Origin: a virus
Taxonomy: Duplodnaviria > Heunggongvirae > Uroviricota > Caudoviricetes
IMG/VR virus record: IMGVR_UViG_2585427757_000019
Strand: one strand, 5' to 3'
Length of the DNA stretch: 7,385 bases
The notes below the pieces were generated by a model. It was given only the letters and a program-made list of their open reading frames with translations. It was not told where the DNA came from and ran no database searches. The position numbers and the translations under genes are program-made. Below, piece after piece: positions 1 to 6,366 of this stretch. Within the stretch, counting starts at the first letter, position 1, and every line of letters starts with the position of its first letter.

Positions 1-303
<303 letters not shown>

Positions 304-469: not shown

Positions 470-1009
470 TCATATCGCCCCCAGCATGGTAGTAACCATC
501 GCCATCAATGGACCAGCCAGATCTGGGTCCACACGAAACATCGACACAATACCTTCACTAATTTCCTTCAGTTTCTGGTGGCGTGGTGCGTTGAGAATGA
601 CAGCCTGTTTTGCCTCACTGAGTTCCTTTTCCATTTCAGCCAACCTAGCCATGAAGCTATCCTGCTCAACCAGGTAACCGCGATATTCCAGCGGTAGTAC
701 CGCCAGAATTGCCGGGGTCAGTTCACGCACGTTATTTCGGTATTTTTCAGAATCGAATTTGTTATCGAGGAAGCGGAACAGCTTCTGGCGTGCACGGCTG
801 ACATCATCAGGGAAATCGATGGTGCCGCCGCCCTGCTCCCGATACTCATTCACAATGAGTGTGGCAACGACATCCTGATTATCTACAGCCGACCAGGCGC
901 GGACGGCATCACGGATTTTTTCGTGGCCTGGCACCTGTTTTGTTTGAGAACGATTTATCACCGCAGTCGGGCTAAATCCGCTAGTCTGTTGGTATGTAAG
1001 TGGTTGCAT
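470..1009 (-). CDS. Regulatory protein in the cII position, possibly YdaT-like (functional CII analogue of Rac/CP-933P-type prophages)
   Basis: 179-aa ORF directly downstream of the cro-like gene on the same strand. AAGGAG lies about 8 nt upstream of the ATG at 1009. Its stop overlaps the next ATG (ATGA at 470-473). Motifs such as EYREQGGG and LTPAILAVLPLEYR are reminiscent of YdaT as I remember it, but this is a tentative family call. Confidence 0.55.
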   Translation of the reverse strand: MQPLTYQQTSGFSPTAVINRSQTKQVPGHEKIRDAVRAWSAVDNQDVVATLIVNEYREQGGGTIDFPDDVSRARQKLFRFLDNKFDSEKYRNNVRELTPAILAVLPLEYRGYLVEQDSFMARLAEMEKELSEAKQAVILNAPRHQKLKEISEGIVSMFRVDPDLAGPLMAMVTTMLGAI

Positions 1010-1078: not shown

Positions 1079-1309
1079 TTAAGCTGCGTTCTTTTCGGTG
1101 TGTGGAAACAACTTCGGAAGATCCGGGCGAATCTGGTATGCCTTCACTACTCCACCAGTAGCCGTAACAATGCTGCCGACATGTTCAGGGGATACCTTTG
1201 CTTTGTTGTGAAGCCACTTATAGACGGCCTGCTGTGAAACTTCGCAAGCAGCGCCCAGTTTCTTTTGTGAACCAACGATATTGATCGCTGTTTTGATAGC
1301 TGGGTTCAT
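1079..1309 (-). CDS. Cro-type HTH repressor, YdaS-like
   Basis: 76-aa ORF divergent from the repressor gene, with GGAGG 6-7 nt upstream of the ATG at 1309-1307. The helix-turn-helix segment GSQKKLGAACEVSQQAVYKWL and the RPDL motif fit the Cro/YdaS family. Confidence 0.7.
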   Translation of the reverse strand: MNPAIKTAINIVGSQKKLGAACEVSQQAVYKWLHNKAKVSPEHVGSIVTATGGVVKAYQIRPDLPKLFPHTEKNAA

Positions 1310-1413
1310 AACAACCTCCGTGGTTAATTTGAATCAAGATTAAAACTATGGTTGTTTTTAGTCAACAACCATTTTCGTTTGATGGAATAAAACCTTGGTT
1401 GTACATTTGGACT
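1310..1413. promoter_or_regulatory. OR-like divergent operator/promoter region (pR toward the cro-like gene, pRM toward cI)
   Basis: Perfect inverted repeat ATGGTTGTT-N7-AACAACCAT at 1348-1372. Further AACAACC/GGTTGT half-sites at 1310-1316 and 1397-1402. Minus-strand promoter candidate: -35 TTGACT (rc of 1360-1365), 17-bp spacer, -10 TAATCT (rc of 1337-1342). Plus-strand promoter candidate: -35 TTGATG (1379-1384), 17-bp spacer, -10 TACATT (1402-1407), placing the start site at or next to the cI ATG at 1414. Confidence 0.5.
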
Positions 1414-2103
1414 ATGAAAACAACACTCTCAGAAAGACTTAAAGAAGCCAGATTAGCGCGAGGCCTTACACAAAAGGCGCTTGGGGATTTGGTCGGGGTT
1501 AGCCAGGCTGCTATTCAGAAAATCGAAACAGGGAAAGCTAATCAAACAACTAAAATCGTGGAGATCGCGAACGCTTTGGGTGTGCGCGCAGAATGGTTAT
1601 CTTCTGGCGTTGGAAATATGTCAGATAGTACAGTGCAACCAATACAATCAACTGTCAGCCATTCCAAATACTTCAAGATTGACGTTCTTGATATAGAAGT
1701 CAGTGCTGGGCCGGGAGTCATCAACCGTGAGTTTGTAGAAGTTCTACGCTCGGTTGAGTACTCGTTTGACGATGCTCGTCACATGTTCGATGGTAGGAAG
1801 GCGGAAAATATCCGCATCATTAACGTGCGTGGTGACAGCATGTCAGGAACGATCGAACCAGGTGATCTGCTGTTCGTTGATATCACAGTTAAATCTTTCG
1901 ACGGTGATGGTATCTATGCGTTTCTGTACGACGACACAGCCCATGTAAAGCGCCTGCAAATGATGAAGGATAAGCTGCTGGTCATCTCTGATAACAAAAG
2001 CTACTCACCGTGGGACCCGATCGAGAAAGACGAGATGAACCGGGTGTTCATCTTCGGTAAGGTTATTGGGAGCATGCCGCAGACATATAGGAAGCATGGG
2101 TAG
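1414..2103 (+). CDS. cI: CI-type prophage repressor (N-terminal XRE HTH, C-terminal S24 LexA-like autopeptidase)
   Basis: HTH segment LTQKALGDLVGVSQAAIQKIETG. Ala-Gly candidate cleavage site in EVSAGPG. Catalytic Ser in GDSMSG and Lys in HVKRL. Start placed at 1414 (MKTTLSERL...) because the upstream in-frame ATG at 1348 lies inside the operator palindrome and the promoter geometry predicts a leaderless transcript from 1414. Alternative start 1348 would give 251 aa. Confidence 0.85.
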   Translation: MKTTLSERLKEARLARGLTQKALGDLVGVSQAAIQKIETGKANQTTKIVEIANALGVRAEWLSSGVGNMSDSTVQPIQSTVSHSKYFKIDVLDIEVSAGPGVINREFVEVLRSVEYSFDDARHMFDGRKAENIRIINVRGDSMSGTIEPGDLLFVDITVKSFDGDGIYAFLYDDTAHVKRLQMMKDKLLVISDNKSYSPWDPIEKDEMNRVFIFGKVIGSMPQTYRKHG

Positions 2104-2980: not shown

Positions 2981-3277
2981 ATGAACGCTTATTACATTCA
3001 GGATCGTCTTGAGGCTCAGAGCTGGGCGCGTCACTACCAGCAGATCGCCCGTGAAGAGAAAGAGGCAGAACTGGCAGACGACATGGAAAAAGGCCTGCCC
3101 CAGCACCTGTTTGAATCGCTATGCATCGATCATTTGCAACGCCACGGGGCCAGCAAAAAAGCCATTACCCGTGCGTTTGATGACGATGTTGAGTTTCAGG
3201 AGCGCATGGCAGAACACATCCAGTACATGGTTGAAACCATTGCTCACCACCAGGTTGATATTGATTCAGAGGTATAA
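2981..3277 (+). CDS. gam: Gam, host RecBCD nuclease inhibitor (short 98-aa form)
   Basis: Translation [21 protein letters not shown]...[10 protein letters not shown] matches lambda Gam from memory with only a few substitutions. AGGAGG-like SD (caggagg) lies upstream. Confidence 0.95.
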
Positions 3278-3282
3278 AACGG

Positions 3283-4068
3283 ATGAGTACAGCACTCGCA
3301 ACGCTGGCAGGGAAGCTGGCTGAACGTGTCGGCATGGATTCTGTCGACCCACAGGAACTGATCACCACTCTTCGCCAGACGGCATTTAAAGGTGATGCCA
3401 GCGATGCGCAGTTCATCGCATTGCTGATCGTCGCCAACCAGTACGGCCTTAATCCGTGGACGAAAGAAATTTACGCCTTCCCTGATAAGCAGAACGGCAT
3501 TGTTCCGGTGGTGGGCGTTGATGGCTGGTCCCGCATCATCAATGAAAACCAGCAGTTTGATGGCATGAACTTTGAGCAGGACAATGAATCCTGTACATGC
3601 CGGATTTACCGCAAGGACCGTAATCATCCGATCTGCGTTACCGAATGGATGGATGAATGCCGCCGCGAACCATTCAAAACCCGCGAAGGCAGAGAAATCA
3701 CGGGGCCGTGGCAGTCGCATCCCAAACGGATGTTACGGCATAAAGCCATGATTCAGTGTGCCCGTCTGGCCTTCGGATTTGCTGGTATCTATGACAAGGA
3801 TGAAGCCGAGCGCATTGTCGAAAATACTGCATACACTGCAGAACGTCAGCCAGAACGCGACATCACTCCGGTTAACGATGAAACCATGCAGGAGATTAAC
3901 ACTCTGCTGATCGCCCTGGATAAAACATGGGATGACGACTTATTGCCGCTCTGTTCCCAGATATTTCGCCGCGACATTCGCGCATCGTCAGAACTGACAC
4001 AGGCCGAAGCAGTGAAAGCTCTTGGATTCCTGAAACAGAAAGCCACTGAGCAGAAGGTGGCAGCATGA
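3283..4068 (+). CDS. bet: Bet (Red beta) single-strand annealing protein
   Basis: 261-aa translation [66 protein letters not shown]... is nearly identical to lambda Bet as I remember it. The stop overlaps the exo start (ATGA at 4065-4068). Confidence 0.97.
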
Positions 4069-4745
4069 TACCGGACATTATCCTGCAGCGTACCGGGATC
4101 GACGTGAGAGCTGTCGAACAGGGGGATGATGCATGGCACAAATTACGGCTCGGCGTCATCACCGCTTCAGAAGTTCACAACGTGATAGCAAAGCCCCGCT
4201 CAGGAAAGAAGTGGCCTGACATGAAAATGTCCTACTTCCACACCCTGCTGGCTGAGGTTTGCACCGGTGTGGCTCCGGAAGTTAATGCTAAGGCGCTGGC
4301 CTGGGGAAAACAGTACGAGAACGACGCCAGAACCCTGTTTGAATTCACTTCCGGCGTGAATATTACTGAATCCCCGATCATCTATCGCGACGAAAGTATG
4401 CGCACCGCCTGCTCCCCCGATGGTTTATGCAGTGACGGCAACGGCCTTGAACTGAAATGCCCGTTTACCTCCCGGGATTTCATGAAATTCCGGCTCGGTG
4501 GTTTCGAGGCAATAAAATCGGCTTACATGGCCCAGGTGCAGTACAGCATGTGGGTGACGCGAAAAGATGCCTGGTACTTTGCCAACTATGACCCGCGCAT
4601 GAAGCGTGAAGGCCTGCATTATGTCGTGATTGAGCGGAATGAAAAGTACATGGCGAGTTTTGACGAGATGGTGCCGGAGTTCATCGAAAAAATGGACGAG
4701 GCACTGGCTGAAATTGGTTTTGTATTTGGGGAGCAATGGCGATGA
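4065..4745 (+). CDS. exo: Exo (Red alpha) 5'-3' dsDNA exonuclease
   Basis: 226-aa translation [65 protein letters not shown]... is nearly identical to lambda Exo as I remember it. Confidence 0.97.
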
Positions 4746-4924
4746 CGCATCCTCACGATAATATCCGGGTAGGCGCGATCACTTTCGTCTACTCCGTTAC
4801 AAAGCGAGGCTGGGTATTTCCCGGCCTTTCTGTTATCAGAAATCCACTGAAAGCACAGCGGCTGGCTGAGAAGATAAATAATAAACGGGAGGCGGTATGC
4901 ACAAAGCATCTCCTGTTGAGTTAA
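4742..4924 (+). CDS. Small protein of unknown function, lambda orf60a-like
   Basis: The ATG at 4742 overlaps the exo stop (ATGA), giving 60 aa ([60 protein letters not shown]). An in-frame ATG two codons upstream (4736) is the alternative start. Resembles lambda orf60a from memory. Confidence 0.65.
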
Positions 4925-5088
4925 GAACGAGTATTGAGATGGCACATAGCCTTGCTCAAATTGGAGTCAGGTTTGTGCCAATACCAGTAGAAACAGACGA
5001 AGAATTTCATACGTTAGCCACATCCCTTTCACAAAAGCTGGAAATGATGGTGGCGAAAGCAGAAGCAGATGAGAGAGACCAGGTATGA
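4897..5088 (+). CDS. Small protein of unknown function, lambda orf63-like
   Basis: 63-aa [66 protein letters not shown] overlapping the end of the previous ORF by 28 bp. Resembles lambda orf63 from memory. Confidence 0.65.
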   Translation: MHKASPVELRTSIEMAHSLAQIGVRFVPIPVETDEEFHTLATSLSQKLEMMVAKAEADERDQV

Positions 5089-5168
5089 CAACCACTGAAT
5101 GCATTTTTCTGGCAGCGGGCTTCATATTCTGTGTGCTTATGCTTGCCGACATGGGGCTTGTTCAATGA
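5085..5168 (+). CDS. Candidate 27-aa hydrophobic micro-protein (MTTTECIFLAAGFIFCVLMLADMGLVQ); not in the supplied ORF track
   Basis: The ATG at 5085 overlaps the orf63-like stop (ATGA) and its TGA stop at 5166-5168 overlaps the ATG of the next ORF at 5165 (ATGA). A 16-residue uncharged core (CIFLAAGFIFCVLMLA) is long enough for one transmembrane helix. GAGAGAGA/AGG purine run lies upstream. Confidence 0.3.
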   Translation: MTTTECIFLAAGFIFCVLMLADMGLVQ

Positions 5169-5380
5169 CACCTCAGCAAGAAAACGCCCTTCGCAGCATT
5201 GCCCGTCAGGCTAATTCTGAAATCAAAAAAGCCAGACAGCATTTTCCGGATAAAAACGTCGATGACATTTGCCGTAGCGTACTAAAGAAGCACCGCGAAA
5301 CGGTAACGCTGATGGGATTCACACCGACTCATTTAAGCCTGGCGATCGGCATGTTGAACGGCGTCTTTAAGGAACGGTAA
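5165..5380 (+). CDS. Hypothetical small protein (71 aa), orf61-position
   Basis: ORF MTPQQENALRSIARQANSEIKKARQHFPDKNVDDICRSVLKKHRETVTLMGFTPTHLSLAIGMLNGVFKER. Start chosen at 5165 because of the ATGA coupling to the upstream micro-ORF. The track's longer version (5099) would overlap that micro-ORF. Confidence 0.5.
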   Translation: MTPQQENALRSIARQANSEIKKARQHFPDKNVDDICRSVLKKHRETVTLMGFTPTHLSLAIGMLNGVFKER

Positions 5381-5402
5381 ACATGAAAAGCAAAATCATC
5401 AG

Positions 5403-5423
5403 GGAGCTACAGGCTCCTTTTTT
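5403..5423 (+). terminator. Rho-independent terminator inside the leftward (pL-type) operon
   Basis: Stem GGAGC (5403-5407) / GCTCC (5413-5417) with loop TACAG, followed by TTTTTT (5418-5423). Confidence 0.65.
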
Positions 5424-5478
5424 ATTATTCGCATTTACCCTCAAGCGTATTAACCAACAATTCAGGGATTAATGAAAG

Positions 5479-5697
5479 ATGGCAGACATCATTGATTCAG
5501 CATCAGAAATCGAAGAATTACAGCGCAATACAGCAATAAAAATGCGTCGTCTGAACTACCAGACTGTATCCGCAACTCATTGTTGTGAGTGTGGCGATCC
5601 GATAGATGAGCGAAGACGCCTGGCTGTTCAGGGTTGTCGGACTTGTGCGAGTTGCCAGGAGGAGATCGAACTTAAGAACAAACAATGGGGACTGTGA
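5479..5697 (+). CDS. TraR/DksA-family C4 zinc-finger protein (lambda Orf73-type)
   Basis: 72-aa ORF with the paired Cys motifs C-x2-C ... C-x2-C (HCCECGDPIDERRRLAVQGCRTCASCQEE), which is the arrangement found in TraR and in the DksA C-terminal zinc finger. Confidence 0.75.
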   Translation: MADIIDSASEIEELQRNTAIKMRRLNYQTVSATHCCECGDPIDERRRLAVQGCRTCASCQEEIELKNKQWGL

Positions 5698-5744: not shown

Positions 5745-6023
5745 ATGTTCAGAATCATTTTTCCTAACACCTGGTACGTCGACCACCACGGCACTCCCTG
5801 CAAAATCCTGCGTTCTACCCACAACAAAGTTCACTACATCCGAAAAGGCAGAACATGTATCGCCAGCATGTTCCGCTTTAATCATGACTTTGAACCTGTG
5901 AATAAAGCTGATGCAGATCGGATAGCAGAAGAGATCGAAACGGCAGAACACATTAAGAAGTTACGTGACATGCGTTCAAAAAGCAGAGGTAACCATGGAA
6001 TCATACAGCCTCACACTCGATGA
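5745..6023 (+). CDS. Hypothetical protein (92 aa), His/Cys-rich, in the ea8.5 position next to xis
   Basis: GAGGTG lies 5 nt upstream of the ATG at 5745. The ORF overlaps the xis start by 29 nt. H/C-rich N-terminal half (HHGTPCKILRSTHNKVHYIRKGRTCIASMFRFNH) suggests possible metal binding. No family recognised. Confidence 0.45.
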   Translation: MFRIIFPNTWYVDHHGTPCKILRSTHNKVHYIRKGRTCIASMFRFNHDFEPVNKADADRIAEEIETAEHIKKLRDMRSKSRGNHGIIQPHTR

Positions 6024-6366
6024 GGCCTGTCAGTTTCTTAAGATATCCAGACCAACCGCCACCAACTGGATACGAACAGGCCGCCTACAGGCAACACGTA
6101 AAGATCCAACCAAGCCAAAATCTCCTTACCTCACAACACGGCAAGCCTGCATTGCGGCGCTTCAGTCTCCGCTGCATACTGTCCAGGTGAGCGCGGGTGA
6201 TGGCATAACAGAGGAAAGAAAATGTCACTCTTCCGCAGAAATGAAATATGGTATGCCTCGTATTCGCTCCCGGGCGGGAAACGAATTAAGGAATCTCTTG
6301 GCACAAAGGACAAGCGGCAAGCTCAGGAGTTGCACGACAAGCGAAAAGCAGAACTCTGGCGAGTAG
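5995..6366 (+). CDS. xis: Excisionase / AlpA-type HTH DNA-binding protein; 3' end uncertain
   Basis: GAGG lies 5 nt upstream of the ATG at 5995. The N-terminal segment [26 protein letters not shown] is a typical excisionase-family HTH, and the gene sits immediately upstream of int. The frame stays open to 6366, overlapping int by 145 nt in another frame. Confidence 0.6.

Follow-up and report, generated by a model that had tools for sequence, protein, structure and literature searches.

A probable 27-codon gene beneath the annotated start of orf61 in the exo-xis block of lambdoid phages

Small hydrophobic proteins of the Escherichia coli inner membrane include AcrZ, MgtS and YohP, and a further group of small hydrophobic products is formed by the type I toxins Hok, Ldr, TisB, Ibs and ShoB, which are often found on prophages. 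With regard to gene organization, trpE-trpD is the textbook example of a gene pair coupled through an ATGA overlap. A 27-codon open reading frame (hereafter the micro-ORF), located between homologues of the phage lambda genes orf63 and orf61 in a 7,385-nucleotide stretch of Caudoviricetes DNA (IMG/VR record IMGVR_UViG_2585427757_000019; hereafter the window), resembles each of these systems in part. Like the AcrZ, MgtS and YohP class, its predicted product is shorter than 50 aa, contains one hydrophobic helix and is missed by gene finders; unlike them, it has no basic flanks, a charge of about -2 and a shorter hydrophobic run, and it shares no sequence similarity with them. The size range of approximately 20-50 aa and the hydrophobic helix are also reminiscent of type I toxins, but the micro-ORF has neither its own promoter nor an antisense promoter, no antitoxin RNA is known for it, overlaps tie it into a polycistronic operon, and it encodes no basic residues. 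Finally, as in overlap-coupled pairs, stop and start codons overlap at both of its ends, and the same junction joins bet to exo in the window; what distinguishes it from the usual pairs is that the coupled unit is a 27-codon gene under sequence selection.

The exo-xis region in which the micro-ORF lies has been the subject of work by the Wegrzyn and Donaldson groups (PMC8614690; PMC6213356; PMC4195576). The Orf61 proteins annotated in lambda, Phi24B and 933W derive from the same DNA, the 5′ part of the annotated gene covering the micro-ORF (PMC8614690), but the annotated extension is read in a different frame, which is unconstrained over 5099-5164; the micro-ORF is a distinct candidate gene upstream of Orf61 and does not belong to it. 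A second described product of the block is the 31-aa orf2313 (Liu et al. 2013, as related in PMC8614690). Orf2313 is, like the micro-ORF, small, conserved, unannotated and abutting orf61, whereas it constitutes a separate ORF downstream of orf61, placed at window positions 5383-5472 by its length only. The ORF at that location, 29 aa in the window and 31 aa in lambda (MNMKSKIIRELQAPFLLFAFTLKRINQQFRD), is probably the 31-aa ORF that the review attributes to lambda ribosome profiling, a match that is one of length and position only. It is kept in 305 places and contains an intrinsic-terminator-like hairpin followed by a T-run (hairpin at 5401-5419), which, again matched by length and position only, is probably the published t2 terminator. 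In most relatives this ORF is joined to orf61 by an ATGA or GTGA junction; in the window, the two are separated as TAA, 2 nt, ATG.

On the basis of Pfam and similarity searches, the window is assigned to the exo-xis block, in the early leftward arm of a lambdoid prophage (Table 1), and its closest public match is phage PhiR34_1 (100%). At the left end of the window, an IS21 IstB fragment comprising the C-terminal part of the protein (profile positions 190-238 of 238) adjoins YdaT-like and YdaS-like genes. Only about 880 bases (2100-2980) separate the CI-type repressor gene from gam; the sole ORF tested in this interval (2615-2905, 96 aa) had no Pfam match. N, cIII and kil are unannotated in the two closest phages, PhiR34_1 and Turner, and Kil and 'GevA' are present between the repressor and gam in other relatives. 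From bet to orf61, all gene junctions are overlaps: 4 nt between bet and exo (4065-4068, necessarily ATGA), 10 nt between exo and orf60a (4736-4745) and 28 nt between orf60a and orf63 (4897-4924), followed by the two ATGA junctions of the micro-ORF. In this reading, translation appears to link the whole block into a single chain. The orf63 homologue aligns with lambda orf63 over its full length, with 4 amino-acid differences among 63 residues, as counted between translations.

Table 1. Features of the window (positions count from its first letter)
Feature	Position	Strand	Remarks
IS21 IstB fragment	31-246		Pfam E=6e-21
YdaT-like gene	470-1009	-	
YdaS/Cro-like gene	1079-1309	-	
CI-type repressor	1348-2103		
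Gam	2981-3277		
Bet	3283-4068		
Exo	4065-4745		
orf60a	4736-4924		DUF1317
orf63 homologue	4897-5088	+	63 aa; DUF1382, Pfam E=7.7e-31
SD-like stretch	5071-5084	+	weak (GAGAGAG..AGG); within last orf63 codons
ATGA junction 1	5085-5088	+	orf63 TGA (5086-5088) overlaps micro-ORF ATG (5085-5087)
Micro-ORF (candidate gene)	5085-5168	+	ATG start, 27 codons and stop; predicted product MTTTECIFLAAGFIFCVLMLADMGLVQ
orf61-extension frame	5099-5164	+	annotated elsewhere as N-terminal 22 residues of 93-aa Orf61; part of the 61-aa orf61 of lambda
ATGA junction 2	5165-5168	+	micro-ORF TGA (5166-5168) overlaps orf61 ATG (5165-5167)
orf61 homologue	5165-5380	+	71 aa; PHROG 303, E=1.7e-35
29-aa ORF	5383-5472	+	
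orf73	5479-5697		TraR/DksA type
DUF4222 protein	5745-6023		
ORF with excisionase-like HTH_17 domain	5965-6366		scanned as 5992-6363
Integrase	6222 onward		

The micro-ORF was first noticed in a sequence-only reading, which described a start codon overlapping the stop of the orf63-like gene and a stop codon overlapping the start of the next gene. Both overlaps are borne out as ATGA at the two ends of the frame. The duplex of its Shine-Dalgarno (SD) stretch with the 16S 3′ end is weak in the orf63 context (-5.6 kcal/mol), compared with -10.3 kcal/mol for orf63 and -4.7 kcal/mol for orf61 at 5165. In simulated random sequences, 26 codons stay open in approximately 25-29% of cases; frames that were open and equally hydrophobic over 15 residues arose in at most 2 of 10,000 simulations (<=2e-4). 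Neither strand has a promoter-like site adjoining the micro-ORF.

For a broader comparison, 331 places were gathered from IMG/VR, metagenomes, phage records and genomes with a conserved 21-mer inside orf61 as the anchor; since the anchor lies within orf61, the sampling was blind to the micro-ORF. Some IMG/VR contigs were fetched twice, which inflates the counts and leaves the ratios unaffected. The micro-ORF is kept in 311 of the 331 places and encodes the identical peptide in 273; the 20 exceptions are accounted for by a 14-nt deletion (1), a 1-nt deletion (1) and a different module (18). Apart from these two deletions, indels within the micro-ORF occur only in two error-ridden assemblies. 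Peptides that are not identical carry one or two, mostly conservative, changes (T3A, T3I, E5K, F8L, G12V, F15L, A21S/V, D22N/G, V26A and rare singletons). Some rare singletons place a charged residue in the hydrophobic core, namely G12D and I14K (L235 887-970, E. coli 52F4, and one metagenome place), and in one contig the micro-ORF stop is lost and the orf61 ATG with it; these singletons could be sequencing errors or deleterious variants. In the first set of 186 micro-ORF places, the start codon lies within a 5′ ATGA junction in all 186, and two further contexts, those of the methyltransferase gene and of Escherichia sp. E1V33, provide it with GGAGG, so the start is usable. At the 3′ junction of the same set, ATGA was found in 175 places, GTGA in 10 and TAATGA in 1, the GTGA form arising because a synonymous CAA-to-CAG change turns the orf61 start into GTG.

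The diversity within these places was then assessed by frame. Using a Nei-Gojobori-style calculation over all pairs of indel-free sequences, a piN/piS of 0.051 (piS 0.0835) was obtained for the micro-ORF in its own frame, and the same bases gave 2.08 in the orf61-extension frame and 3.50 in the third frame. Among the neighbours, the value was 0.056 for the 71-aa orf61 and 0.244 for orf63; purifying selection on the micro-ORF is thus as strong as on orf61. Among distinct alleles, 15 synonymous and 16 nonsynonymous changes were counted in the micro-ORF frame (expected synonymous fraction 0.23, p=0.002), and all five alleles present in at least 10 places are synonymous. Because all relatives are Escherichia sequences at least 90% identical in DNA, this signal rests on approximately 31 variable alleles and five common polymorphisms. 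The sequence-only reading had proposed checking the frame and its ATGA junctions in related prophages and had named loss of the frame in close relatives as evidence against the ORF. Both overlaps are retained along with the frame and the diversity is almost purely synonymous, an outcome that favours the ORF. Three sequences were set aside as frame tests: the two most divergent orf61 homologues, P0069 and P0075, are uninformative, being indel-ridden assemblies in which orf63 is also broken, and P0037 has an IS element upstream. On this comparative evidence, which goes well beyond what chance would give, the micro-ORF is quite likely a selected coding ORF, and it is probably a genuine protein-coding small gene of the lambdoid exo-xis block, phage lambda included.

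An open frame with overlaps at both ends might also be translated solely to pass ribosomes from orf63 to orf61, in which case the peptide would be functionless. The conserved ATGA overlaps at both ends, the weak SD of orf61 and the presence of a GAGG SD of its own in an orf61 variant that lacks the micro-ORF are all consistent with such a relay. For this purpose, however, any open frame would suffice, and yet amino-acid changes are selected against to the same extent as in orf61, the peptide is not free to vary, its composition is far from random in the simulations, and in five lambda-type loci the micro-ORF is intact even though orf61 is truncated. A relay without a functional product is therefore unlikely. 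For a micro-ORF that encodes a functional product, the following sequence of events can be proposed. It would be transcribed as part of the early leftward operon to which gam, bet and exo belong; ribosomes that terminate at the UGA of AUGA, at the end of orf63 or of the methyltransferase gene found in its place in some relatives, would restart on the overlapping AUG and, 27 codons later, restart again at the next (A/G)UGA on the weak-SD orf61. Since the peptide sequence is constrained, the product is expected to be functional in itself, and it may act as a small modulator in early lytic development. A knock-down by CRISPRi in lambda found the annotated genes of the block, orf61, orf63 and orf60a, to be non-essential (PMC10695390).

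Relatives with other gene arrangements offer additional insights. In 23 of 194 context-classified places, a 185-aa phage N-6-adenine methyltransferase gene takes the place of orf63. Homology between this context and the window begins at base 46 of the query, i.e., at window position 5085, where the micro-ORF ATG begins; here too the two genes join through ATGA, with a canonical GGGAGG 5 nt upstream. A homology boundary at the start codon is what is expected of a gene boundary in lambdoid mosaics. In another arrangement, found in 18 of 331 places, a variant orf61 (71 aa, N-terminus MTIEHNN...) lies behind a 250-aa gene, has its own GAGG SD and is not preceded by a micro-ORF. From the absence of any extension in this variant it follows that Orf61 can do without the 22-residue extension, and the micro-ORF itself is, judged from these sequences, dispensable in some relatives. 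In the lambda-type loci orf61 is frameshift-truncated with the micro-ORF intact (5 of 5 places); one of these five micro-ORFs encodes 26 aa, with its stop one codon early.

A fourth arrangement, the only such case seen, is found in Escherichia sp. E1V33 (locus L215; 371-1438 and 1435-1716), where the gene upstream of the module encodes a 355-aa protein with a DGQHR motif. Here the micro-ORF SD and first seven bases are present, the next 14 nt are deleted, and the ATG is thereby joined to the orf61 frame. When codons are read in the micro-ORF frame, the bases just downstream differ from the reference by two synonymous changes and one conservative change. Because the SD and first seven bases are kept and the downstream changes are mild, the E1V33 arrangement is most readily interpreted as a derived disruption. 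A search of 5426 complete E. coli genomes found no match to it over its full length. Five E. coli matches seemed to share the deletion; the two that were examined carry ordinary micro-ORF alleles.

The start of orf61 is annotated inconsistently, with lengths of 71, 83, 93 and, in lambda, 61 aa. Start 5165 (71 aa) is used by the curated phage 434 entry and by PGAP in several E. coli genomes, and other annotators choose the ATG corresponding to 5099, which opens a different frame overlapping the micro-ORF. In lambda, the annotated gene (NP_040613, 30839..31024) starts at an upstream ATG, runs for 31 codons over the micro-ORF out of frame and continues with residues 1-22 of the 71-aa protein (MTPQQENALRSIARQANSEIKK), ending early because of one extra A in an A-run. 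It could be argued that a long Orf61 (93 aa from 5099, or from 31024 in lambda) is the real gene and that the micro-ORF is a chance frame over its 5′ end. The lambda and phage Turner annotations and the exo-xis literature give the gene in this form, PHROG 303 spans all 93 residues, and in E1V33 that very frame begins at an ATG that is preceded by GGAGG and forms part of an ATGA junction. Nevertheless, the extension frame shows no sign of constraint in the piN/piS comparison, ATG 5099 has a weak and badly spaced SD (-3.8 kcal/mol), and the common allele, the one in this window, has TGA just upstream of 5099, where others have GGA or AGA. Moreover, the extension is missing from the variant orf61, and E1V33 is more readily read as a deletion inside the micro-ORF. 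Structural models point in the same direction: in the AF2 model of the 93-aa protein, block-mean pLDDT is low at the N-terminus (45 for residues 1-10 and 60 for 11-20) and reaches 72-86 over residues 21-80, which include the helical core. Published Orf61 models disagree over residues 1-23, which are not consistently modelled (PMC8614690).

Taken together, these points make a genuine long Orf61 very unlikely. Because the micro-ORF evolves as a coding gene, the published 5′ extension is probably wrong; positions 5099-5164 are probably not coding in the orf61 frame, and the true start of orf61 is most likely 5165, giving 71 aa. As to the nature of this protein, the literature models the orf61 product as a homeodomain-like three-helix protein. 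PGAP often names the product of 5165-5380 'cell division protein ZapA', a name that is unsupported because the Pfam match (E=0.038) scores 14.7 bits against a cut-off of 23.8.

The selected frame could also lie on the opposite strand, where a 61-aa ORF at 4967-5152 (-) would make the micro-ORF its shadow. This frame likewise has a synonymous excess (S=11, N=20, p=0.032), which is explained by its third codon positions coinciding with those of the micro-ORF. The signal falls short of that in the sense frame, and the same shadow effect appears antisense to orf61. In addition, the length of the antisense ORF varies with context (40, 44, 48, 61 or 76 aa), its ATG is lost in 4 places, it crosses the orf63 antisense in a non-matching frame, and there is no minus-strand promoter-like site nearby. 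An antisense gene is accordingly an exceedingly improbable source of the signal. A further proposal treats the segment as a non-coding spacer, an RNA element or a programmed -1 frameshift site joining the micro-ORF to orf61. As read from the sequence, a T5 run at 5104-5108 could allow slippage into the orf61 frame, but this run is broken in several haplotypes (TTC, CTT, ATA), no X XXY YYZ heptamer is present, and the frame entered by such a slip shows no constraint. With regard to an RNA element, no Rfam family matched anywhere in the window at E<=1, and the micro-ORF region folds no better than its shuffles (z=+1.09). This set of explanations is hence highly unlikely. A hairpin over the orf61 start was also considered and rejected, as a common GGG/GGA polymorphism would break one of its G-C pairs.

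The micro-ORF is widespread in sequence collections. Lambda encodes the peptide with 100% identity (J02459, 30925-31008, complement), and a tblastn search with the peptide matched 176 phage records, with identity of >=99% in 138; lambda is among them at 100% (J02459 30928-31008). The micro-ORF is unannotated in both J02459 and RefSeq NC_001416. At the DNA level, window positions 5040-5215 have matches at 4367 places, distributed over 3205 of 5426 complete E. coli genomes; among the matches listed, PGAP annotates no gene other than the two flanking ones. As a protein, the 27-aa sequence occurs in identical form on at least 981 contigs and is already listed in protein databases as a 'hypothetical protein' from a few submissions (UniRef A0A0A2SGE8; GenBank, e.g., ETI79567.1); it has therefore been called before by some pipelines. 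Almost all non-Escherichia matches in the genome-contig scan are lambda-type copies of the region that include the extra A of lambda. Such copies occur in assemblies labelled Shewanella, Pseudomonas, Bradyrhizobium, Paenibacillus, Kitasatospora and others (L216-L229), and several sit on contigs of ~48.4 kb. This contig size suggests laboratory contamination; the copies look like lambda DNA contaminating the assemblies and so add no taxonomic range.

In the literature, full-text searches found no paper mentioning the peptide, the supplements of an EHEC Ribo-seq study did not contain it, and a search for initiation-site profiling of lambda returned nothing relevant. A PIRT-Seq study of a K-12 strain makes no mention of prophage. 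In the account of lambda Ribo-seq given in one review, only a 7-aa and a 31-aa ORF are named as extra ORFs of the block, and the 27-aa ORF is not on that list (PMC8614690). The peptide also had no significant match in Pfam, PHROGs or NCBIfam.

As for the properties of the peptide, the sequence-only reading had described a hydrophobic core compatible with a single-pass membrane peptide. The core is real: it spans C6-L20, 15 uninterrupted residues, and can be extended to V26 (21 residues) if D22 is tolerated; its best 15-residue window has a Kyte-Doolittle mean of 2.87, and none of the other ORFs of 20-45 aa in the window (72 in all) is as hydrophobic. On the position-independent Hessa scale, the residues sum to -3.5 kcal/mol over 15 positions and to -0.14 over 21. 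The only charged side chains are E5 and D22 (net charge approximately -2), no Lys or Arg is available for a positive-inside flank, and with a hydrophobic run of only about 15-16 residues the peptide is therefore atypical of such proteins. From the combination of E5 and D22, the missing basic residues and the hydrophobic run, the acidic 27-residue product is predicted to form one helix that either lies within the inner membrane or associates with a hydrophobic partner; that it is membrane-embedded is about as likely as not. A role as a type I toxin finds no counterpart in the surrounding DNA, given that no minus-strand promoter-like site was found near 5085-5168 and no Rfam family matched in the window (E<=1). 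Confidence in any specific function is low.

These findings bear on earlier genetic work in the block, which influences induction and lysogenisation (PMC6213356). Published orf61 deletions replaced 'the nucleotide sequence of orf61'; since the whole annotated gene was replaced, the micro-ORF was removed with it. A deletion made at the annotated coordinates takes out the entire micro-ORF in lambda; under the 93-aa annotation, only the first four codons of the micro-ORF are left. If the micro-ORF is a gene, the phenotypes of orf61 deletions in lambda and Phi24B (induction, lysogenisation and adsorption) would not be attributable to Orf61 alone. Because Orf61 is frameshift-truncated in lambda, it is a poor candidate for the lambda phenotypes. 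One tentative and rather doubtful extension of this argument is that in lambda the functional gene between orf63 and orf61 is the micro-ORF, and that its hydrophobic 27-mer, acting through a host inner-membrane target, explains some or all of the effects of 'orf61' deletions on lysis-lysogeny and on induction. Over-expressed orf61 has been found in insoluble aggregates (PMC6213356). Structural and expression work on the 93-aa Orf61 would, if the micro-ORF is real, have used 22 non-native residues; that these Cys-rich residues underlie the aggregation is speculation.

The micro-ORF brings no new mechanism, as small hydrophobic phage proteins overlooked by annotation are already known. It does offer an example of an 84-nt gene that would have escaped annotation by being hidden beneath a mis-called start. 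Lambda is the reference temperate phage, and the exo-xis block occurs both in Stx phages and in over half of the complete E. coli genomes. If the micro-ORF is a gene, the lambda, 933W and Phi24B references would be wrong at orf61, with its start misplaced and a gene missing, and the orf61 annotations of Stx phages (93 aa) and of lambda (61 aa) would both carry a spurious 5′ extension. The micro-ORF provides a directly testable candidate in a region that has long been puzzling.
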